Assembly: GCA_965204745.1 (NCBI GenBank)
Contig: OZ242010.1
Coordinates: forward strand, 4,640,001-4,704,000
DNA from: Candidatus Latescibacterota bacterium
Lineage (GTDB): Bacteria; Latescibacterota; UBA2968
DNA: 64,000 bases
Direction: 5' to 3'
The stretch's first letter is position 1, and every line of letters begins with the position of its first letter. Under the pieces are notes generated by a model. The model searched no databases. It had not been told where the DNA came from and saw only the letters and a list, made by a program, of their open reading frames with translations. The translations under genes were made by a program, and so were the position numbers. Shown one piece after another: positions 4,725 through 59,912 of the stretch.

Positions 4725-4751
4725 GGGATGCCTCCTTTGAGGGTGAGATGA

Positions 4752-5205
4752 GGTTGTGTTGACATTTCATTTTTTTCACGTTACGCACAGATTAGCAAAT
4801 GTGTTGCTTGCTCATTTAAGGCGTTTGGTCCTTTGATGGCTTAGGTTGCTCTGATGGCGTTGACCAAGGGGACCTATCCCCCGGCCCCTTTCCTACGAGG
4901 AAAGGGGAGTAAAGCTCCTTTGATGGCTTCTCGCTCTAGTTGCTCTGATGGCGTTGCGCGAGGGCATAAAGCGATTAAATATCCCTCATCAATCCCCTCG
5001 CAAAACCGCTCACCGTTCCCCCCTTCCTCAAAGGCACAGGCGTAGCCTACAACGAAGCGAAGCGAGTAACGGGGTTAGGGGGGTAGGTCCCGATAAGGAG
5101 CGACTGTTCCAGTTTCTCAAATCGAGAGCATATTCTGCGATAGGGCTTGATTTTCTCGATAAACCGCTCAAGCCAGTTGCTTTGCTCGTAAATGTCAACA
5201 GAACC
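4752..5205. mobile_element. MITE family A carrying an inverted pair of REP-A hairpins
   Basis: TIRs GGTTGTGTTGACATTT / AAATGTCAACAGAACC; internal REP-A at ~4869-4908 (fwd) and ~5018-5091 (rev); no transposase ORF. Confidence 0.85.
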
Positions 5206-5425
5206 TAATAAAATAAGGGAATTATATACTTAACTAAACGAGTCTATGTTATTATATTTTTTTCTTAAGACAATGAATGAGAGTATTGTTTTTTGGAGGA
5301 ATTTGCAATGGCTACCGTGCCCACAGACAAGGATTTGACGTTAGGAGAAGCTTAAAAGGGATGCAAAGGGCATTGGGTTTATTCAAGTATATAATTCCCT
5401 AAAATTAAATGCGAAAGGAGATGCC

Positions 5426-10147: not shown

Positions 10148-10680
10148 GATTGTGTTGACATTTCATTTGGTCCTTTGATGGCTTCTAACTCTGGTTGCTC
10201 TGATGGCGTTTTGCGAGGGTACCTATCCCCCGGCCCCGTTATTCGCTTCGCTCATTGTAGGCTACGCCTGTGCCTACGAGGAAAGGGGAGTAAAGTGCCT
10301 TTGATGGCTTCTCGCTCTAGTTGCTCTGATGGCGTTTTGCGAGGGTACCTATCCCCCGGCCCCGTTATTCGCTTCGCTCATTGTAGGCTACGCCTGTGCC
10401 TACGAGGAAAGGGGAGTAAAGCACCTTTGATGGCTTCTCGCTCTGGTTGCTCTGATGGCGTTTTGCGAGGGCATAAAGCGATTAAAAATCCCTCATCAAT
10501 CCCCTCGCAAAACCGCTCGCCATTCCCCCCTTCCTTGTAGGAAGGGGGGCCAGGGGGGTAGGTCCCGATAAGGAGCGACTGTTTCAGTTTCTCAAACCGA
10601 GAGCATATTCTGCGATAGGGCTTGATTTTCTCGATAAACCGCTCAATTCAGTTGCATGGCTCGCAAATGTCAACACAACC
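10148..10680. mobile_element. MITE family A inserted in a CTGACYA heptamer tract with TA duplication
   Basis: CTGAC[TA]GATTGTGTTGACATTT ... AAATGTCAACACAACC[TA]CTGAC; internal ~126-bp tandem duplication of a REP-A unit. Confidence 0.88.
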
Positions 10681-15131: not shown

Positions 15132-15319
15132 TCAGTAGTCAGGGTCAGGCCCCGTAAAACCTCTCGCATAATCCCTCGCAAAATCGCTCCTCGTTCCCTC
15201 CTGTATCTTCCTGCCAGGAAGAGGGCCAGGGGATAGGTCCCTCACCACCCAATATTTCCCGTCTTGCCTCTCCCGTCTTGCCTCTCCCCTCTTGTTTTTG
15301 GCCAGGGGGGGTAGGTCCC

Positions 15320-30584: not shown

Positions 30585-30770
30585 TTTGCGCGAGGGGACC
30601 TATCCCATCACCGCCCCACCGTGTCTGAATCGCGGATTAAACGGATTAGGGGATTACGCGGATTACCCCACATCCCCACCGCCACTTTACCGTTTCCCGC
30701 CTCCATCCCTCGCAGGCACAGGCGTAGCCTACAACGAAGCGTAGCGAGTAACGGGGCCAGGGTTTAGGTC
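30585..30770. repeat. Composite repeat block (REP-A fragments plus CGCGGATT repeats)
   Basis: GGGGACCTATCCC; TCTGAATCGCGGATTAAACGGATTAGGGGATTACGCGGATT (related copies near 43084 and, inverted, 59822). Confidence 0.75.
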
Positions 30771-31062
30771 ACAATTCCCTTGACTAGAAAGACATAGTAT
30801 CTTAATTTGTCTTCAGCATCGTTATTTTTTTCACGTAGGCAAAAGCCATGCCTGCACAACTCGTTCTATTTTCAAGAGAGTTCACATGTTGACCACCATT
30901 TTTCGACGTTGTTCAAACCTGTTTGGAGGCCACCGTTCCCCTGCGAAAAGAGGGGTTCATATCGCCCATCCCCGCCTTGGAATGTGGTTCTATTTCATTG
31001 CAAAACAGTCTGTTAGGATGATCAGTACAGTGTACCCCCCCCCCCCTCGAGAGGAGGGTAAA

Positions 31063-34023
31063 ATGATGCCCCGCTACGCTCACTTGTTGGCCCTGGTCGC
31101 GCTGGTCATGCTGGTGGCATCGGGGCCGGTCAACGCGCAGAACGTGACGATTCCCGACGCCAACCTGCGAGCGAAAGTTAATCAGAGACTGAATAGGGCA
31201 ACGACTAGCACTTTGCCGATTACCGTTAGTGATATGGCGAGTATAACCATCCTTCAAGGGATTAGATCGAATATCAGTAATCTAACCGGGCTTGAACATG
31301 CAACCGGACTGCAAAGATTGCAGTTACTCGGCAACAACATCACAAATATCGACTCCCTATACGCCTCAACTAACCTGCATACCCTGGACTTAAGCGAAAA
31401 CAACATCACAAATATCGGCGTCCTATCGAAATTAACCGGCCTGAGAATAAGCCTGAACTTAAGCCGAAACAACATCACAAATATCGACTCCCTATACACC
31501 CTAACTAACCTGAGAAGCCTGAACATAAACGAAAACAACATCACAAATATCGACTCCCTATACACCCTAACTAACCTGAGACAACTGCAAGCAACCCATA
31601 ACAACATCACAAATATTGACTCCCTATCGAACTTAACCGAACTGAGATTGTTGCGTCTTAACAACAACCGCATCTCGGATCTCTCGCCTCTACGGAACTT
31701 AACCCGTCTGGAATCTCTGGGTCTTGACAACAACAATATCACGGATCTCTCGCCTCTCATGCACTTAACCAGCCTGACATATTATGTGACCCTTAACTAT
31801 AACAACATCACAAATCTCGACTCTCTATCGACCTTAACAGATTTAGACCGTCTCGGGCTTATAGCAAATGTGAATCTCTCGGATATCTCGCCTCTATCGA
31901 CCTTAACCAACTTGAAAAGGCTGAATATATACAGCAACCCAAGTCTCTCGGATATCTCGCCTCTATCGACCTTAACCAACTTGGAATCTATTGATGCTAG
32001 ATTCTCCAACATCTCGGATATTTCGGCTCTATCGAACTTACCCCTACTAAGGTGGGTGTATCTTAACACCAACCGCATCACGGATCTCTCGCCCTTGATT
32101 TCAAATACGGGAGTGGGCTCAGGAGACTTTGTTCGCGTATATGCAAATCCGCTGAGTGCCACGTCGCGGAACACGCACGTTCCCGCCCTTCGGAACAGAG
32201 GGGTAAATGTAACACTTTCGCCAGTCATAACGCTGTCGCTGTCGTCCTCCGCGATTGGCGAAAACGGTGCAACCGCGACCATCACGGCAACGTTGGACCA
32301 AGCGCATCGCACTTTTGCAACGACGATCACCGTCGCGGCTGCTCCGGGCGCAAACGCTGTGTCGGCCGATTTCACGTTGAGCAACAACCCCGTGCTGACT
32401 ATCGCGGTCGGTGCAACGACGAGCACCGGCACTGTAACGATTACAGCAGTGGACAACTCGGTCAGTGCAAGCGATAAGACGGTCACTGTGTCGGCCACCT
32501 CACTGGGCCGTGTTCTAAGATCAGGTAGAGCTGTCCCCGATGTAACGCCCCCTTTACCTGTGCCCCTGACCATCCTAGACGATGAATCCCCGGTCACAAC
32601 GCTAGTGCTGTCGCGATCCGAGATAGACGAAAGCGGTGCAACCAATCAGACGACTGTGACAGCGACCTTGACCCGGGCATCGACCGCGGCAACGACGATC
32701 ACCGTCGCGGCTACTCCGGGCGCAAACGCTGTGGCGGGCGATTTCACGTTGAGCAACAACCCCGTGCTGACTATCGCGGCTGGCGCAACGACGAGCACGG
32801 GCACCGTAACGATTACAGCGGTGGACAACTCGGTCAGTGCAGGCGATAAGGCGGTCACTGTGTCGGGCAACGCGCAGAACAGCGCCGGCGTCGCCTCCCC
32901 CTCAGATGTGACCCTGACCATCCGAGACGATGAACCCCCCTCCCGAGCTGAAGATCCGGTTGAAAATCCGGCGGCTACAAATCAAGTGCCCGAATTTACA
33001 GATGTGGTGGATTTTCAACGCTATCAACAAGGCACACCTATTGCGCCGCTGACATTCCCCGTGGCCCAGGGTGGCGACGGAGCACTGACCTACACTTTGT
33101 CCTCACTTCCTCCGGGCCTGACCTATACCCCGCCGAGCGAAGAGGACGCGCATGGCGGCGTCTTGTCCGGCACGCCGACCGAGACACAGGCCAAAACCCT
33201 GTACACCCTGACCGCAACAGACGAAGACGAAGATGTGGCGCGTGCGTTATTCTACATCGTCGTCATGGTAGCTACATCGTCGGACGTCGAGGCAGATAGG
33301 ATGCCGTCTTTCGGCGATGCGACGGTCGCCGCGCAAAGCTATGTACAAAACCGAGAGATCGAAGCGATAACCCTGCCGCAAGCGACCGGTGGCGATGGCG
33401 CGCTGACCTACGCGCTGACCCCCGATCTGCCCGAGGGCTTGACCTTCAACACCGAGACGCGGGTGCTGTCGGGTCTGCCGACCGAGGCGCTAGGCGAAAC
33501 GACCTATACGCTGACCGCAACAGATGGCGATGGCGACGAGGCGACCCTGCGATTCGCCCTCGCCGTGGCGGAAGATCTCATGCCCTCATTTGCCGATACG
33601 GTCGTCGCCCACCGCTATCTGGTGAAAACAGAGGTCGAGATAACTTTCCCCGAAGCCACGGGTGGCGACGGGGTGCTGGCCTATATCCTCTTGCCATTCC
33701 TGCCCGATGAGTTGGAATTTGACCACGAGACGCGGGTGATATCCGGCACGTTGCTTCAGGCGATACTCGAGACCGAATACACGCTGAGCGCGTTGGACGC
33801 GGATGGCGATGTGGCTTCGCTGGTCTTCACCCTTGAAGGGCTCACGCCCGACTTCGATGGCAATGGTCGGGTCAATTTCGCGGATTTCGCGCTTTTTGTC
33901 GTCAGGTATGGAACGCGGCATGGCGAAGAAAGATATAACTCGCGCTACGATCTCAATAGCGATGGTGCGGTTGGCTATGACGATTTTTTGATCTTCCGTC
34001 AGTATTACGACACGGAGATTTGA
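31063..34023 (+). CDS. Secreted internalin-like LRR protein with Calx-beta/Ig-like repeats and C-terminal EF-hand (dockerin-like) module
   Basis: GAGGAGG RBS, signal peptide, VTIPDANLRA cap, about a dozen 22-aa LRRs, duplicated Thr-rich beta domains, GGDGALTY putative-Ig repeats, PDFDGNGRVNFADF. Confidence 0.92.
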   Translation: MMPRYAHLLALVALVMLVASGPVNAQNVTIPDANLRAKVNQRLNRATTSTLPITVSDMASITILQGIRSNISNLTGLEHATGLQRLQLLGNNITNIDSLYASTNLHTLDLSENNITNIGVLSKLTGLRISLNLSRNNITNIDSLYTLTNLRSLNINENNITNIDSLYTLTNLRQLQATHNNITNIDSLSNLTELRLLRLNNNRISDLSPLRNLTRLESLGLDNNNITDLSPLMHLTSLTYYVTLNYNNITNLDSLSTLTDLDRLGLIANVNLSDISPLSTLTNLKRLNIYSNPSLSDISPLSTLTNLESIDARFSNISDISALSNLPLLRWVYLNTNRITDLSPLISNTGVGSGDFVRVYANPLSATSRNTHVPALRNRGVNVTLSPVITLSLSSSAIGENGATATITATLDQAHRTFATTITVAAAPGANAVSADFTLSNNPVLTIAVGATTSTGTVTITAVDNSVSASDKTVTVSATSLGRVLRSGRAVPDVTPPLPVPLTILDDESPVTTLVLSRSEIDESGATNQTTVTATLTRASTAATTITVAATPGANAVAGDFTLSNNPVLTIAAGATTSTGTVTITAVDNSVSAGDKAVTVSGNAQNSAGVASPSDVTLTIRDDEPPSRAEDPVENPAATNQVPEFTDVVDFQRYQQGTPIAPLTFPVAQGGDGALTYTLSSLPPGLTYTPPSEEDAHGGVLSGTPTETQAKTLYTLTATDEDEDVARALFYIVVMVATSSDVEADRMPSFGDATVAAQSYVQNREIEAITLPQATGGDGALTYALTPDLPEGLTFNTETRVLSGLPTEALGETTYTLTATDGDGDEATLRFALAVAEDLMPSFADTVVAHRYLVKTEVEITFPEATGGDGVLAYILLPFLPDELEFDHETRVISGTLLQAILETEYTLSALDADGDVASLVFTLEGLTPDFDGNGRVNFADFALFVVRYGTRHGEERYNSRYDLNSDGAVGYDDFLIFRQYYDTEI

Positions 34024-34090: not shown

Positions 34091-35028
34091 GGGACCTACC
34101 CCCCTAACCCCCGTTACTCGCTTCGCTTCGTTGTAGGCTACGCCTGTGCCTGCGAGGAAGGGGGAATGGCGAGAGGGTTTGCGAGAGGAATGGCGATAGG
34201 TCTTGCGAAGTGGGACCTACCCCCTGGCCCCCTTCCTACGAGGAAGGGGGAATGGCGAGAGGGTTTGCGAGAGATTTACGCGAGAGGTTTTTGGGGTTCA
34301 TGGCGTGATCCATTCGCCCAAAGCCATCAGAACAGCCAAGGAAACAAACTTCAAAAAGCCATGTGCTCCCCCTTTCCTTGTAGGAAAGGGGGCCGGGGGG
34401 ATAGGTCGCTTTTTCATGGCGCGATCCATTCGCCCAAAGCCATCAGAACAGCCAAGAATACAAACCATCAAAAAGCCATGCGCTCCCCCTTTCCTTGTAG
34501 GAAAGGGGGCCGGGGGGATAGGTCGCTTTTTCATGGCGTGATCCATTCGCCCAAAGCCATCAAAACAGCCAAGGATACAAACCATCAAAAAGCCATGCGC
34601 TCCCCCTTTCCTCGCAGGCACAGGCGTAGCCTACAATGAGCGAAGCGAATAACGGGGGCCGGGGGGATAGGTCGCATTTTCATGGCGCGATCCATTCGCC
34701 CAAAGCCATCAGAACAGCCAAGGATACAAACCATCAAAAGAGCTTTTCTCCCCTTTCCTCGCAGGAAAGGGGCCGGGGGATAGGTCCCAAAAGCCATCAA
34801 AATAGCCCTTGCATTCATCTATCAAGAAACCCATGCTCCCCCTTTCCTTGTAGAAAAGGGGGCCGGGGGGATAGGTCGCATTTTCATGGCGCGATCCATT
34901 CGCCCAAAGCCATCAGAACAGCCAAGAAAACAAACCTTCAAAAAGCCATGTGCTCCCCCTTTCCTCGCAGGCACAGGCGTAGCCTACAATGAGCGAAGCG
35001 AATAACGGGGGCCGGGGGGATAGGTCCC
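34091..35028. repeat. REP-A array (8 hairpins) upstream of DUF559 gene
   Basis: Two forward units (34091, 34212) and six reverse units ending ~34407, 34524, 34673, 34788, 34877, 35028; basic period 117 bp. Confidence 0.92.
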
Positions 35029-35052
35029 ATAAAAAAATCTAAGCGAAACATC

Positions 35053-35427
35053 GTGATTGGGCAACGTGTTATGGCCGAGAAAGTGGCACAAGCGCGGCGG
35101 TTGCGAAAACAGATGACCGAGGCGGAAAAACGGCTTTGGGAACGGTTGCGTGGAAACCGGGTTGATGGGGTTCACTTTCGCCGCCAGCAAATCATTGACG
35201 GTTTTATTGTCGATTTCTACTGCCATGCCGCTGGCTTGGTCATTGAAATTGATGGTCAGATTCACGCTCATCAGGTTGGTTATGATGCCCAACGCGATGA
35301 GGTACTCAAAGCCCACGGATTACAAATCATCCGCATATCGAATGAGAAAATCTACGCGGATATAGAGGGCGTTGTTCAAATGATCAGAGCGCATGTCAAG
35401 GGCATGATCTGTCCTCCTAACCCCTAA
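35053..35427 (+). CDS. DUF559 (Vsr-like / PD-(D/E)XK) endonuclease domain protein
   Basis: ARRLRKQMTEAEKRLWERLR, FRRQQIIDGFIVDFYC, LVIEIDGQIH, YDAQRDEVL. Confidence 0.92.
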   Translation: MIGQRVMAEKVAQARRLRKQMTEAEKRLWERLRGNRVDGVHFRRQQIIDGFIVDFYCHAAGLVIEIDGQIHAHQVGYDAQRDEVLKAHGLQIIRISNEKIYADIEGVVQMIRAHVKGMICPPNP

Positions 35428-35458
35428 AAGGAGGAACTTGTGAGCGGTTTTGCGAATC

Positions 35459-35778
35459 GGGACCTACCCCCCTAACCCCCCTTCCTGCGAGGAAGGGGGA
35501 ATGGCGATGGGTCTTGCGAGGGATTTGCGCGAGAGGTTTTTGGGGTTCATGGCGTGATCCATTCGCCCAAAGCCATCAAAACAGCTAGGGATACAAACCA
35601 TCAAAAGAGCTTTTCTCCCCTTTCCTTGCAGGAAAGGGGCCGGGGGATAGGTCCCAAAAGCCATCAAAATAGCCCTTGCGTTCATCTATCAAGAAACCCA
35701 TGCTCCCCCTTTCCTCGTAGGCACAGGCGTAGCCTACAATGAGCGAAGCGAATAACGGGGGCCGGGGGGATAGGTCCC
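35459..35778. repeat. REP-A array (3 hairpins) downstream of DUF559 gene
   Basis: One forward unit (35459) and two reverse units (ending 35655, 35778) with the same linkers as the upstream array. Confidence 0.92.
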
Positions 35779-35837
35779 CTCGCGCAACGCCCGCATCGCC
35801 TACTTGTTTTTTTATTACTGACCACTGACCACTGACC

Positions 35838-38800
35838 ATGACACTCAAAAAATCAATCTACATCACTATCGGAACAGCCAGTGTGCTGCTGATCGCGTTG
35901 TTGCTGATCGCTGGTGGCTATGTCAATGGGATCGTGCGCGGCTTGGCGCAGCGCGTTCTGGTGTGGCAACTGGCGGAGGACGCTCGGATCGGCGCGATTC
36001 GGGGCAATCCATTGCGCGAGTTTCGCGTGGTAGATGTGCAAATCGGCGATTGGGTGCGCGTGGATACGCTCGATGTGGCGTACGATATTTGGGGCATGCT
36101 GAGAGGGCGGGCGATTGTGCATCGGTTGAAGGTGATCGGGGCCGAGGTGCTGATCAAAGGGTCGGACGGCGCGTTTTCGCAGATAGCCCTGCCCGTGGAG
36201 ATCGAGTCGCTGGAGATCGCAGGGGCCGAGGTCGTGATCGACAGCACGCGAGTGCGGGACATCGCACTCTCTGGCGCGCTTGTCGCAGAGGATCAGGGCT
36301 ATCGCGCGGTTTTGAAGCGGTTTCGCTCCGTGCAGTTCACCCCGCCGTTAGAGGTGACCAATTTGTCTGGCGTCGCGGTGTTGCAAGGCGGACGGGTGCA
36401 GTTGAACGACATCGCGTTGCACACGCACAACTCTCGGGTTTTGCTCAGTGGCACAGTGCGGCAGTTGGACGATCCCGTGCTGGATATCGGCGTAGAGGCC
36501 GACTCCCTGTGGCTGGCGGATATCCGAGGGATCGGCGAGCTGCCAAAGCGCGCGGTGCGGTTGCGCGGCAAGGTGCAGGGCGGGCTGGATTCCCTGGGCG
36601 TGGAAGCACTTGTCGCGCGTGGCGCGTCCGATTCCCTGGTATTTCACGGCGTTTTGGGCGTTTCGCTATTTGCCCTGCGCGGCGATGCGGCTTTCGAGAT
36701 CGCGGTGGAGGATCTGTCCGATTGGGGTGTCCCACTGGAAGATGCGGTCGGGTTCGATTTGAAAGGACAAGGCAACATCCAGGTCGATTCCTCGGGCGTG
36801 CGCGAAGGCCATGTCGAGGGCGTTTTGCAGCGCGTGCGCGTGGGCGATGCGCGGTTTGATTCCGTGGATTTTTCCGGCACTTTGGCAGATGGCCTGTTCC
36901 GAGCACAGGTCGCTGTGGCCGGGCCGAGCGGCGAGATAAAAGGCGGTGGGCGAGCGCGGTGGGCGGATTGGCGCGGGGACTGGGCGATCCGGTTCAGCGA
37001 TGTGCATGCGGGACAATTCCCCGGCGTGCCCAAAAATGTCGGGCGAACGAACGGGCGCGTCGATATTGCACGCGATTCCGTGTGGCGCGTGGGCATTGCG
37101 CTGGACAAAGTGCAAATGCCAGATGGCGAGATGCGAGACGCGACTGCCCAGGCCCGATATGGGGATCAGCGGCTCGTTGTCGATCACTTTGCGGCGCGAT
37201 TGCCGCATTGGGGAATGCGCGTTGTGGGCAATGGGCAGGGGGTGATCGATCTCGAACCCGCGATTGCAGGCAGTCTCCGCGCAGAGGTCGCGTTGCCCGA
37301 TTTGCTGCGGACGGACAGGTGGGGCGATTCCCTGACGGTTGCGGGCCGCGTCGATGGCATTGTGGGCCGCGCGCTGAAAGTGGCGTTGTCGGGCGCGATT
37401 GCGGGCAATGCCGCAGCGGATCGCTTTCGCATGTCCGGTGCGGTCGATTCCATATTGCGGACGGAATTTTACGCGGAACTGTTAGGCGATGCCGGGATGT
37501 TGTCCACCGAGGGGCACGTCGATGTGCGCGAGATGGCACTGTCGGGCGCGTGGCAGCTAGATGTCTCGCAGTTGGCGGCAGTCGGCGAGGTGATCGGCGT
37601 GGATTTGGCCGGGGCGATGAAATTGTCCGGCGCGTTGTCCGGCGATTTGACCGCGCCCGGTTTTTCCGCCAAGGGCCACGCGGATAGCCTCTTGGTGGCG
37701 GGCGTTTTGGTGCAAAATGTCGATCTCGATACCCGCTGGGCGCGGCCGGATTCGGGTGCTGTGATGTTGCGAATCGATCACTTGATTTCGAGCCGCCGCG
37801 CGTTGCGGGCCGTGTTTCTCGACGCGGTGTACGTGCGCGGCAAAACGTCTTTTTGGTTTGGCAGCGCGGCGCGGGCGCAGGACGGGATTTTCTTGATGGG
37901 CAGCGCGCAACAGGTCAAAGACGAGGTGCGAGTGGCGGTGGATTCGTTGCACATTCAGGTCGATGAGGTGGCGTTGAACAACGAGGGGCGGATTCGATTT
38001 GCGTACGCGCCCGGGCGGGGCATTCACATCGGGCAGTTGGTTCTCTCCGGGCCGGCCGGCCGGCTCATTGCGCGGGATCAGCGGGATTTTCAGGCGACTG
38101 TAGAAGTGGTGTTGAAAAATTTGGATTTGCGCCCGTGGGCATTCGTGGCGGGCGTTTCCGGTTCTGGCGGCATTCTCAATGGCGAGATGCTTTTTGCCGG
38201 TACCCTGACGGACCCGCTCGTTTCCGGCGCGTTCACATTTGCAAATGCCAAGGTCATGGGGGTGCGATTTGGCGATGCCACCGCAGAGATGTCGTTTGGC
38301 AATGGCAAGATGCTCGCAGAGGCACAGATCGCGCCCACAAAAGACGAGGTGATCGACGTGGTCGGCAACGTTCCCATTGCAGTGCCCGGGGACATGCACC
38401 TGCGCGTTCGGTCAAAGGGAATCGCGCTCCGCACGCTTTTGGATGTGGCGGATGAAAAAACGAAATTGGCGGGGATAACGCGGTCAGAAGGCTTGGGGAT
38501 CAACACGGCTTTGAACGCGCTTTTCGACGCGTCCGAGGGGATTTCGGGAAAACTATCGCTGGATTTGGACGCGCGCGGGCGTTTTGATGATCCCGATCTT
38601 CGCGGGGTGATTGAACTCGAAGAGGGGGCGATTAACCTGTCGAATCTGAATCGGTCTTATGCCCCGGTTTCTGGTCGCGCCGTGATTGGGGATGGCAAAA
38701 TTCGGATCGACAACTTTGTGGTCGGGCCTGCGGCGACCCTGTCTGGCACGGTGACGCTCGCGGGATTTTTGCCGACCCGGTGGGATTTGTCCGCACACTT

Positions 38801-39725
38801 GAACGCATTTGAACCCGTGGCCCTGCCGGAACTGCAACTCGTAGCAGATGGGCAGTTGCGATTTTCAGGCACGCCAGAAAGCTCGCAACTCGAGGGCGAG
38901 GTGGCATTGAAACAAGCCGAGATCCGCTTGGCAGAATTGCTCAAAACCCCGGGCCAGGAAGCGGGGTTGCTAGATGCGTTGAATATCCATGTGCAAGTGT
39001 CTGCGGCTAGACAGGTGTGGATACGCGATCCGACTTTTGAGGTGGAAATCGCGGGAGATGTGGATGTGATCCAAGGTCGCGACGGCCTGCGGATTTACGG
39101 CACGCTGACCAGCCGCAGGGGAAATTACATTTTGCAAAACCGTCGCTTGCGGATTACGCAGGGCGAGATTCAGTTTCAGGGCAGGCCCGGGGGGAATCCG
39201 AATCTGAATATCCGCGCCGAGACGCGCATCCGCGCTGTGATTGCAGAAGACGCGGAGCCGGTCGATATTGCGGTCGCAGTGGGCGGCACCCTGACGCATC
39301 CGCAGGTCGAGATGACGAGCGATCCGCCACTGGAAGGGGATATGGGAGATATGCTCGCGCTGTTGCTGACGGGCAGGTCGGTCAGCCAGTTTAAGTTTTC
39401 CCGCGAGGGCACGCTGGATCTCGTTTTGGGCGTTGCCGCAAACCGCTTGGGCCAGCATATCGGGCAAAAATTGCGCCTGGATTTGGTAGAGATCGATGTC
39501 GGACAGGGCAATATCTCTCGGGTTCGGCTGGGCAAGTACATCGGCACGCGGCTTTTCATGAGTTATGCCCGCGACATTTCGAGCACGGCCAATGAGCTGG
39601 CAATGGAGTTTGAAGTGTTGCCGGGCGTGACATTTGAAGCGCGTCAGGTAGGGGACGTGGATGAAGACACCAAGAACCAGCGGACGCGGGAATCGGTCGG
39701 GCTGTTTTGGAAGAAGGAGTGGTAG
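35838..39725 (+). CDS. Translocation/assembly module TamB-like protein (DUF490)
   Basis: N-terminal anchor, long beta-rich body, C-terminal ITQGEIQF..NPNLNIRAE..VGGTLTHPQV..LGKYIGTRLF. Confidence 0.88.
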   Translation: MTLKKSIYITIGTASVLLIALLLIAGGYVNGIVRGLAQRVLVWQLAEDARIGAIRGNPLREFRVVDVQIGDWVRVDTLDVAYDIWGMLRGRAIVHRLKVIGAEVLIKGSDGAFSQIALPVEIESLEIAGAEVVIDSTRVRDIALSGALVAEDQGYRAVLKRFRSVQFTPPLEVTNLSGVAVLQGGRVQLNDIALHTHNSRVLLSGTVRQLDDPVLDIGVEADSLWLADIRGIGELPKRAVRLRGKVQGGLDSLGVEALVARGASDSLVFHGVLGVSLFALRGDAAFEIAVEDLSDWGVPLEDAVGFDLKGQGNIQVDSSGVREGHVEGVLQRVRVGDARFDSVDFSGTLADGLFRAQVAVAGPSGEIKGGGRARWADWRGDWAIRFSDVHAGQFPGVPKNVGRTNGRVDIARDSVWRVGIALDKVQMPDGEMRDATAQARYGDQRLVVDHFAARLPHWGMRVVGNGQGVIDLEPAIAGSLRAEVALPDLLRTDRWGDSLTVAGRVDGIVGRALKVALSGAIAGNAAADRFRMSGAVDSILRTEFYAELLGDAGMLSTEGHVDVREMALSGAWQLDVSQLAAVGEVIGVDLAGAMKLSGALSGDLTAPGFSAKGHADSLLVAGVLVQNVDLDTRWARPDSGAVMLRIDHLISSRRALRAVFLDAVYVRGKTSFWFGSAARAQDGIFLMGSAQQVKDEVRVAVDSLHIQVDEVALNNEGRIRFAYAPGRGIHIGQLVLSGPAGRLIARDQRDFQATVEVVLKNLDLRPWAFVAGVSGSGGILNGEMLFAGTLTDPLVSGAFTFANAKVMGVRFGDATAEMSFGNGKMLAEAQIAPTKDEVIDVVGNVPIAVPGDMHLRVRSKGIALRTLLDVADEKTKLAGITRSEGLGINTALNALFDASEGISGKLSLDLDARGRFDDPDLRGVIELEEGAINLSNLNRSYAPVSGRAVIGDGKIRIDNFVVGPAATLSGTVTLAGFLPTRWDLSAHLNAFEPVALPELQLVADGQLRFSGTPESSQLEGEVALKQAEIRLAELLKTPGQEAGLLDALNIHVQVSAARQVWIRDPTFEVEIAGDVDVIQGRDGLRIYGTLTSRRGNYILQNRRLRITQGEIQFQGRPGGNPNLNIRAETRIRAVIAEDAEPVDIAVAVGGTLTHPQVEMTSDPPLEGDMGDMLALLLTGRSVSQFKFSREGTLDLVLGVAANRLGQHIGQKLRLDLVEIDVGQGNISRVRLGKYIGTRLFMSYARDISSTANELAMEFEVLPGVTFEARQVGDVDEDTKNQRTRESVGLFWKKEW

Positions 39726-44053: not shown

Positions 44054-44510
44054 GGTTCTGTTGACATTTACGAGCAAAGCAACTGGCTTGAGCGGTTTAT
44101 CGAGAAAATCAAGCTCTATCGCAGGATATGCTCTCGGTTTGAGAAACTGGAATAGTCGCTCCTTATCGGGACCTACCCCCCTAACCCCCGTTACTCGCTT
44201 CGCTTCGTTGTAGGCTACGCCTGTGCCTGCGAGGAAGGGGGAACAGTGAGCGGTTTTGCGAGGGGATTGATGAGAAATTTTTAATCGCTTTATGCCCTCG
44301 CAAAACGCCATCAGAGCAATCAGAGCGAGAAGCCATCAAAGGAGCTTTACTCCCCTTTCCTCGTAGGAAAGGGGCCGGGGGATAGGTCCCCTCGCGCAAC
44401 GCCATCAGAGCAATCAGAGCGAGAAGCCATCAAAGGCACTTTACTCCCCTTTCCTCGTAGGAAAGGGGCCGGGGGATAGGTCCCATAGCGATAAGCCATC
44501 AAAGGACCAA
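44054..44510. mobile_element. MITE family A, inverted, one TIR missing
   Basis: Follows CAGTAGG heptamers: [TA]GGTTCTGTTGACATTT; three REP-A hairpins. Confidence 0.82.
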
Positions 44511-47008: not shown

Positions 47009-47232
47009 CTGGCGACAGCCCGTTCAAAGGCACGAGCGGCAGGTGTAGGGGCGATGCCCCGTCTCGTCCAAAGACCTCAACGATATTATCGGATCGCACC
47101 TTAGAACTTGTCTTAAAACGAACGATGGATGCCCCTCCGCCGGCTCCTCCCCGCAACGGAGAGATGTTATTCCCCCCTTCCTCACAGGAAGGGGGGCTAG
47201 GGGGGTAGGTCCCAATAATAGGAGCATGGATT

Positions 47233-59461: not shown

Positions 59462-59912
59462 GGCGTGAGAGGGGAGACGCAAGAGGTGAGAGGTAAGGGG
59501 AGTAAAGCTCCTTTGATGGCTTAATCTATGGTTGCTCTGATGGCATTGACCGAGGGCATAAAGCGATTAAAAATCCCTCACGCCATCCCCTCGCAAAACC
59601 GCTCGCCATTTCCCCTTTCTCGTAGGCACAGGCGTAGCCTACACCGAAGCGGAGCGAGTAATGGGGCGTCCCCCTCGCAAACCCCAACCGCAGGATACAA
59701 GACAGGGCTAACGCACACGGTAGGGCGGTGATGGGATGGGAACGCACGGGCGGAGAGGTGGCGTGGTGAGGCCGCACGGGCGGTTGGGCAGAGCGGCTGG
59801 GCACGCACGGGCGGAGAGGGGTAATCCGCGCAATCCCCTAATCCGCGCAAATCCGCGATTCAGACACGGCGGGGCGGTGGGTGGATCTTACCTCTTACCT
59901 CTTACCTCTTAC
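59462..59912. repeat. Composite repeat block (REP-A linker, insert module, ACGCACGGGCGG and AATCCGCG repeats, heptamers)
   Basis: Pieces match 4905-5070, 30620-30665 and 40388-40542. Confidence 0.75.

Follow-up and report, generated by a model that had tools for sequence, protein, structure and literature searches.

A DUF559 nuclease gene among triplex-type hairpin ends in a Latescibacterota genome: a candidate nuclease-only selfish cassette

We analyzed a 64,000-nucleotide stretch of the genome of a Candidatus Latescibacterota bacterium (GCA_965204745.1, contig OZ242010.1, positions 4,640,001 to 4,704,000 of the forward strand; hereafter the window), in which a lone gene of the DUF559 nuclease family lies among copies of a hairpin repeat. 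The source genome (G000) is complete (5,482,115 bp, 56.5% G+C), and public runs labelled sponge or marine metagenome contain the same stretch. The intergenic space that holds the gene is bounded on its 5′ side by the gene for a 1045-amino-acid (aa) leucine-rich repeat (LRR)/He_PIG/dockerin protein (30886-34023) and on its 3′ side by tamB (35838-39725), and between these two lie 11 copies of one repeat together with a 124-aa open reading frame (35053-35427). The original prediction, made from the sequence of the window, had counted eight hairpins upstream and three downstream of a lone DUF559 gene, and this arrangement was confirmed: two forward and six reverse units precede the gene, and one forward and two reverse units follow it. 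It is the only DUF559 gene of the source genome, and its 11 repeat units form the largest of the 290 clusters in which the repeat occurs there. We lean toward reading the locus as one copy of a widespread, very small selfish cassette that encodes only a nuclease, accompanied by miniature copies and spread through host repair.

From its outside to its inside, each repeat unit consists of GACCTA(C/T) followed by a C-run, a loop of 2 to 3 nucleotides (nt), a C-run with TTCCT or TTTCCT, a 4-nt loop, and AGGAA(A) with a G-run. Two kinds of end can be told apart: in L-type ends the variable pyrimidine is C, the loop is TAA, TGG, or TAG, and the stem is TTCCT, and in R-type ends the pyrimidine is T, the loop is GG, and the stem is TTTCCT. 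These features are tightly linked in the 547 ends that could be parsed in the source genome (C with TTCCT, 184:1; T with TTTCCT, 227:1). In both L- and R-type ends of the locus, a manual count finds that the C-arm of the hairpin is a mirror of the outer segment over 9 of 11 positions; ends without an insert measure 38 to 42 nt. The gene is preceded by forward-strand L-type ends at 34091-34164 (outer segment GACCTAC plus C-run, loop TAA, hairpin with a ∼38-nt insert) and 34212-34250 (loop TGG) and then by reverse-strand R-type ends at 34368-34409 (GACCTAT, loop GG, stem TTTCCT), 34485-34526, 34602-34675 (with the ∼38-nt insert), 34750-34788, 34838-34879 (stem mutated), and 34955-35028 (with insert); a tandem array at 34297-34612 (period 117, 2.7 copies) carries one R-type end per copy. 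Downstream lie a forward L-type end (35459-35499) and two reverse R-type ends (35617-35655 and, with insert, 35705-35778). In 134 of the 547 parsed ends, both L and R, the ∼38-nt segment takes the place of the hairpin's 5′ arm (in the window at 34113-34150, 34625-34662, 34978-35015, and 35728-35765); its 18-nt core occurs 190 times in the genome, and the segment has the look of a very small secondary insertion directed at the hairpin.

The three-block layout of the BoxC/PIT/triplex repeats (block, N3-6, complement, N3, mirrored block plus GTC) fits all 11 locus units. Holder et al. (2015) describe BoxC/PIT/TMECO as an intrastrand triplex motif with loop types TTA and CCG and a terminal GTC, demonstrate triplex formation by TMECO in vitro by circular dichroism and nuclear magnetic resonance, count 23 triplex motifs in the Escherichia coli K-12 genome, and link these intergenic, multicopy repeats, widespread in E. 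coli, cyanobacteria, and elsewhere, to genome rearrangement and instability; passages of that paper report no association with mobile elements and name no enzyme (PMC4666352). Our repeat shares with theirs the block layout, intergenic position, multiple copies, wide occurrence, and tie to genome rearrangement, and differs in that the motifs here are the ends of a gene cassette, a link to mobile DNA that those passages do not draw (PMC4666352). Since the layout is the same, the repeat class is already known and the locus repeat is a sequence variant of it; the claim that it was a new repetitive extragenic palindrome (REP) was accordingly not upheld. The literal E. coli TMECO consensus has no match in the window because the block sequence differs, and an Rfam scan of the window returned no family at gathering score.

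The open reading frame at 35053-35427 matches DUF559 (PF04480) with an E value of 4e-35 (120.3 bits against a curated cut-off of 20.6). The single protein finds the solved DUF559 structure 3hrl at E = 2e-17, and a 22-member DUF559 profile finds 3hrl at E = 1e-28 and the homing endonuclease I-Bth0305I (3r3p) at E = 4e-4; these matches suggest that the protein is Vsr-like. All 23 columns that are invariant among 22 homologues are kept in it, including D54, E65, D67, and H71 (numbered from the GTG at 35053). The family as a whole is very large, with 23,015 clusters at 50% identity for E ≤ 0.001 and 10,802 for E ≤ 1e-10.

The ends reach into the signals by which this gene is translated. Just as had been noted, the last upstream unit ends at 35028, directly before ATA-AAA-AAA-TCT-AAG-CGA-AAC-ATC-GTG, and the homologous first codon is ATG in four relatives (G018, G008, G009, and G039), where the protein begins MKKSKRNIV or a close variant. 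Population variation could be read in four public runs as point differences within the gene, their short-read contigs breaking at repeats and the joints among them running from one repeat to another; position 35031 is G, which gives ATG, in contigs of runs X14 and X1, and A in X13. The true start is therefore 35029 (gene, 35029-35427, forward strand), mutated in this assembly, in which the first canonical start is the GTG at 35053. The outer tip of the R end abuts this ancestral start codon; the R end occupies the ribosome-binding-site position with its G-run and provides the purine run ahead of the start. At the other side of the gene, the L end provides the stop codon in many relatives, and in cyanobacterial and other homologues the stop is a TAA inside an intact L end. 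The decayed repeat that had been suspected at the last codons of our gene is present as well: by eye, the 3′ end of the gene with its stop and the ∼30 nt that follow (35412-35457, forward strand) aligns with the start of an L-type unit.

The same pairing of gene and ends recurs in other phyla. We compared the best 80 of 452 confirmed relatives, which come from Cyanobacteria, Chloroflexota, Planctomycetota, Armatimonadota, Bipolaricaulota, Leptospiraceae, and others. An enrichment of hairpins in DUF559 flanks had been anticipated, and it is pronounced: by a strict end pattern (a regular expression), at least one end lies within 300 bp of the gene in 59 of these 80 loci, with ends on both sides in 37, and end density is 2.66/kb near the gene (136 ends in 51,067 bp) compared to 0.15/kb further off (56 in 369,313 bp), an enrichment of about 17-fold. 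Variant ends were recognized by eye in 17 of the 21 loci that have no strict match; in the other four (L123, L142, L151, and L163) neither the pattern nor inspection by eye found any. The commonest simple layout is end-gene-end (10 loci), and the [L R]-gene-[L R] layout of the source genome also occurs in Anabaena and others. As a control, ends were within 300 bp at none of 10 Y1-transposase loci in four repeat-rich genomes. The ends are conserved across phyla far beyond what is expected of host intergenic DNA, and they overlap the translation signals of the gene.

The pairing extends to E. coli K-12, where a literal TMECO motif lies 167 bp downstream of the DUF559 gene ycjD; given that this genome has 23 such motifs, we calculate a chance of ∼0.4% that one falls within 250 bp of a given gene. 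The interval between ycjD and the intact TMECO contains a second, partial copy of the final ∼45 nt of the gene, followed by a decayed motif (L176, 5240-5420). It is conceivable that the Latescibacterota gene is a mere bystander in an intergenic hot spot of mosaic repeats, given that the genome is extremely repeat-rich, that intergenic sites are hot spots for unrelated repeats, and that the region upstream of tamB is rearranged relative to congeners. Such a coincidence is very improbable, being contradicted by the 59 of 80 loci in other phyla with their ∼17-fold enrichment and by E. coli, and the by-eye listings of flanking motifs argue against an artefact of the search pattern.

The expectation that the flank hairpin would also be the abundant repeat of each genome, and would covary with DUF559, held in part. 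An Anabaena genome (40 matches versus 1 in the control) and a Ktedonobacterales genome (230 versus 4) do carry the flank-type end as a dispersed repeat, but an Anaerolineae genome (15 versus 8) and a Planctomycetota genome (15 versus 5) do not. Protein distance and end distance are weakly correlated over the 59 loci (Mantel r = 0.17; 6 of 999 permutations as high). Many DUF559 matches in the wider set fall in stop-free frames of 480 to 1400 aa (e.g., G028:C14:311636-311950, G026:C1:2300084-2300398, G175, and G203), and there the cassette appears to sit in frame within larger genes.

Comparison with 20 congeners of the source genome shows that the cassette comes and goes as a unit. Among these congeners a stand-alone DUF559 gene is found in G008, G009, and G018 only, leaving 17 of the 21 genomes of the genus without it, and the gene occupies three non-orthologous chromosomal places (in G000, in G018, and in G008/G009). 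A complete L..R pair abuts the ATG in G018 as in the source genome; the flanks of this G018 block map to 1,882,239-1,883,062 and 1,884,325-1,885,698 of the source genome, which has neither ends nor gene there. G008 and G009 carry a 546-bp L-gene-R insertion at a site that is empty in 12 congeners (G002-G007, G011-G013, G017, G019, and G020); G010 and G015 have other content at this site, and its anchors were not found in G000, G001, G016, and G018. G014 keeps the same ends at the site; a deletion that runs from the L hairpin loop to a point 30 nt short of the stop codon has removed the gene. The empty allele holds the 7-nt tip of the R end, AGAGGTC, and there is no direct duplication.

Gene-less units behave similarly. 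Four sites occupied by 86- to 89-bp L-R units in G008 only have clean or near-clean empty alleles: at the first, TAA stands on both sides of the unit; at the second, CTTT stands on both sides with extra DNA beyond the ends (a 3- to 4-nt repeat); at the third, there is an imperfect ∼10-nt repeat of the Shine-Dalgarno region of the downstream gene; and at the fourth, 15 nt have been replaced and there is no repeat. Elsewhere, an L-gene-R unit in G036 is flanked by a 14-nt duplication of the end of the upstream gene, and G026, a congener of G036, has only a 23-nt relic of the L end at that site. Target duplications across the six events therefore have no fixed length (0, 3, 3 to 4, ∼10, or 14 nt); such variable junctions are unlike those of a transposase and fit break repair with microhomology. 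For both size classes, the gene-bearing units of ∼550 bp and the gene-less L-R units of 86 to 230 bp, close relatives differ in whether a given site is occupied. The gene and its ends are inherited and moved together, and gene-less units exist and turn over. We also sought empty sites for elements of the source genome in 400 kb each of G016 and G001, where intergenic DNA was too diverged and too repeat-filled to define junctions. The tamB orthologues of G018 and G016 have no ends and no DUF559 gene upstream; their upstream neighbor differs, so they do not provide a clean empty site.

This turnover bears on the possibility that DUF559 serves the host as a Vsr-like repair nuclease, acting in very-short-patch repair for a C5-methyltransferase or in trimming hairpins or triplexes, while the repeats gather nearby for unrelated reasons. 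The source genome has ten genes for C5 DNA methyltransferases and none, as far as we could find, for a canonical Vsr, and in Caulobacter deletion of a solitary methyltransferase leads to DNA damage by the DUF559 protein VsrA (PMC12907096). Yet none of the ten methyltransferase genes is near the cassette, the closest lying ∼245 kb away, the gene is absent from most of its genus, and it changes sites together with its ends. Its start-codon loss and a frameshift in related populations also look like the decay of a dispensable gene. We judge a host role of this kind to be improbable.

The ends are abundant in the source genome far beyond the locus. The 14-mer GGGACCTAYCCCCC, with at most one mismatch, occurs 24 times in the window compared to 0.02 times expected from shuffles, and the 11-mer core GACCTAYCCCC occurs 603 times in the genome. 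Of the further copies that had been listed in the window, those at 4869/5091, 10218-10566, 15228-15319, 18318/18508, 44168-44484, and 47200-47213 are intact, and those at 30594-30770 and ∼59500-59680 are decayed. Genome-wide, there are 192 adjacent ends in the order forward then reverse, and 177 of them are spaced 150 to 240 bp apart, which marks them as pairs of one L and one R end that resemble MITEs (miniature inverted-repeat transposable elements) or REP doublets (REPINs). The identity of these 177 pairs to their best partner has a median of 95.5%; 36 have a full-length partner at ≥98%, and 9 have one at 100%. The original prediction would have been undercut by a transposase, in particular a REP-associated tyrosine transposase (RAYT), flanked by the same repeat, and neither was found: the complete genome has no match to the Y1/RAYT family (PF01797) and no insertion sequence with these ends. 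Its abundant insertion sequences, which are of IS110 type (∼53 copies), DDE_Tnp_1_5 type (∼17), and two DDE_Tnp_1 types (∼13 and ∼15), have other termini. No coding element lies between such ends apart from ordinary genes, which are what the two long intervals between inverted ends contain.

In the selfish cassette that we favor, a Vsr-like DUF559 nuclease gene would be tied to two unlike, inverted ends. By analogy with I-Bth0305I, a homodimeric enzyme that cuts a pseudopalindrome, the nuclease would nick or cut at the conserved ends, having recognized them in the form of duplex, triplex, or extruded hairpin. Host recombination or end joining would then copy the unit, with another copy as its source and the ends as homology, and occasionally the unit would be copied into a new site by microhomology, which would explain target duplications of variable length. 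Gene-less units would use the enzyme in trans. More broadly, and more tentatively, the BoxC/PIT "triplex" repeats of E. coli K-12, cyanobacteria, and hundreds of genomes may be the ends and miniature derivatives of a class of DUF559-only mobile elements whose nuclease cuts the folded or duplex ends and whose units are copied by host repair, a proposal to which we give somewhat less than even credence. BoxC/PIT elements have been known since the 1990s, and we know of no account of the origin of the BoxC/PIT/triplex repeats or of the enzyme that acts on them. Neither the repeat class nor the protein family is new, but their pairing is; we found no paper linking DUF559 to these repeats, although the motif tables of Holder et al. 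were not compared with gene neighbors.

Several observations weigh against the cassette reading. A hydrolytic PD-(D/E)XK nuclease cannot join DNA and so cannot alone do the job of a RAYT; every step after cutting is therefore one that we infer. The L..R pairs of the window do not enclose the gene but point the outer tips of their ends toward it, whereas the gene lies inside the pair in G008, G009, G036, and G029. The gene has an ATA start codon in this assembly, and the X1 contig has a 4-nt insertion in it after 35227. The junctions described above are heterogeneous and come from only six events. Furthermore, part of the expansion in the source genome has another vehicle. An IS427-type insertion sequence of 818 bp is present there in 8 copies (e.g., 1353974-1354791), and its ∼430-bp MITE, with terminal repeat GGTT(C/G)TGTTGACATT, holds an L-R pair exactly 116 bp from each tip (in the window, the region 4750-5210). 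An IS427-type terminal repeat adjoins 66 of the 177 pairs (≤350 bp), on both sides in 23, on one side only in 41, and together with an IS982-like terminal repeat in 2; in another 22 pairs the only adjoining terminal repeat is IS982-like and stands on a single side, and 89 pairs have neither type. The IS427-type MITE is a separate element with the L-R pair as its passenger, and the MITE-adjacent pairs probably travel with such MITEs, moved by a DDE transposase, so this part of the expansion amounts to hitchhiking. Of 41 pairs that counted as "isolated," many are likewise flanked by other repeated modules.

The association between gene presence and repeat copy number, which we measured as the count of one end pattern minus a backwards-read control, bears on the cassette reading both for and against; overlapping matches inflate all of these counts (26 matches correspond to 19 sites in the window). 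The DUF559 gene (E ≤ 1e-15) is present in 37 of 168 genomes of the phylum. In genus g1, the excess is 39, 53, 169, and 633 in genomes with the gene; without it, the excess is at most 6 in 15 genomes, 24 in G014, and 44 in G016. Genomes with the gene have an excess of 31 to 134 in g6, compared to 33 to 45 in six genomes without it, and of 230 in g13, compared to 55 in one without it (G078). The phylum test gives a Mann-Whitney P of 9e-5, with 56 of the 168 rows (families f1 to f3) entered, and because the genomes of one group are kin and not independent, such tests overstate the effect. Within a sample of a cyanobacterial order, where 58 of 101 genomes have the gene, an excess of at least 10 is found in 11 of the 58 with the gene and in 3 of the 43 without (one-sided Fisher P = 0.07, Mann-Whitney P = 0.04), and 47 of the 58 have no excess of the pattern used. 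End-rich genomes without the gene include, besides G014, G016, the six of g6, and G078, three cyanobacteria: G214 (109, the richest of the sample), G256 (29), and G260 (17). The link at the level of genomes is thus clear in genus g1 and weak elsewhere, and, as with MITEs and REPINs, some repeat families are orphans. A weak PF04480 match in G214 was rejected as a cassette, being a different PD-(D/E)XK protein without ends.

Such gene-less, repeat-rich genomes and the MITE-borne pairs are also what one would see if DUF559 were a selfish gene of the homing type that inserts into, or next to, triplex-hairpin repeats already in place, a parasite of the repeat and not its spreader, with the gene-less units multiplying through DDE-driven MITEs or recombination. 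The closest solved relative with a known role is indeed a homing endonuclease, a single gene faces hundreds of ends, and layouts with the gene inside and outside the pair are both found. Against this, both ends came with the 546-bp unit of G008/G009 to a site where the empty allele matches one tip over just 7 nt, gene and ends are conserved together across phyla, and gene-less 86- to 89-bp units without any MITE shell were gained in a genome that bears the cassette. We regard the homing alternative as unlikely, although it is the rival that we take most seriously.

Set beside known systems, the selfish cassette that we favor shares features with several. As in REP/REPIN-RAYT systems, a single-copy enzyme gene lies amid a dispersed hairpin repeat (here, one gene, 603 ends, and 177 doublets), the inverted pairs measure 100 to 200 bp, and copy number varies strongly between close relatives. 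REPs themselves are simple palindromes of 20 to 40 nt with a conserved GTAG or CGTC head (PMC3733652), whereas the ends here start with GACCTA and consist of two like blocks and a complementary one; the RAYT is a Y1 enzyme of the HUH class, whereas here the candidate enzyme is a hydrolytic Vsr-like nuclease, which forms no covalent intermediate, no Y1 gene is present, and the duplications at junctions vary. The proposal of a REP-like system that works without an HUH enzyme is supported by the pairing across phyla, by gain and loss of the gene with its ends, and by the absence of a Y1 gene, and it is weakened by the pairs borne on IS427-type MITEs and by the repeat-rich genomes that lack the gene. 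Vsr-like "EDxHD" homing endonucleases such as I-Bth0305I have a related nuclease core, spread selfishly as nuclease-only genes via host repair, and include free-standing forms (PMC3239194, PMC2677866); the proteins here differ in being single domains of 124 to 132 aa outside any intron or intein, bounded by their own inverted ends, with gene-less miniatures and with empty sites that share only the 7-nt tip match. Bacterial MITEs are likewise short, noncoding elements with inverted ends and many copies, some of them recent, but no transposase gene with these ends accompanies our units and the target duplication is not fixed in length; a parent element with the same terminal repeats plus a transposase exists only for the outer shell of the ∼430-bp MITE. 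Caulobacter VsrA belongs to the same Pfam family and has genotoxic nuclease activity in vivo; it differs in its functional link to a methyltransferase, and flanking repeats are not mentioned in passages of that report (PMC12907096).

If the cassette reading is true, a nuclease-only element type joins the catalogue of bacterial mobile DNA, with a transposase-free mode of spreading intermediate between REP/RAYT systems and homing endonuclease genes. DUF559, a very large orphan family, and the BoxC/PIT/triplex repeats would each gain a function from a cognate pairing, which would also explain Pro/Gly-rich "hypothetical proteins" that are misannotated and N- or C-terminal extensions that stem from translated ends. 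What the present locus contributes is a complete genome in which ∼600 ends accompany one gene, gains and losses inside a genus, a nested route by way of IS427-type MITEs, and junctions with variable duplications.

The surroundings of the locus are themselves mosaic. The source genome is very repeat-rich, with many multikilobase paralogous segments of adhesin genes. The gene before tamB in G018 has a reading frame that closes immediately upstream of tamB, and in the source genome tamB is preceded by the LRR/He_PIG/dockerin adhesin gene, which has many paralogues; the region has therefore been rearranged. Short tandem arrays of 7-nt units (e.g., TGACCAC and CAGTAGT) border many of the repeats; such arrays lie at 35816-35837 of the window and at many MITE flanks. 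In G009, G014, G015, and G017 (L192-L194, L197-L199, and L201-L204), another hairpin repeat with the core CTGGATCGCGGC...GCCGCGATGAC is found in small intergenic sites, sometimes in ∼70-bp tandem arrays, and such intergenic sites are hot spots for several unrelated repeats.

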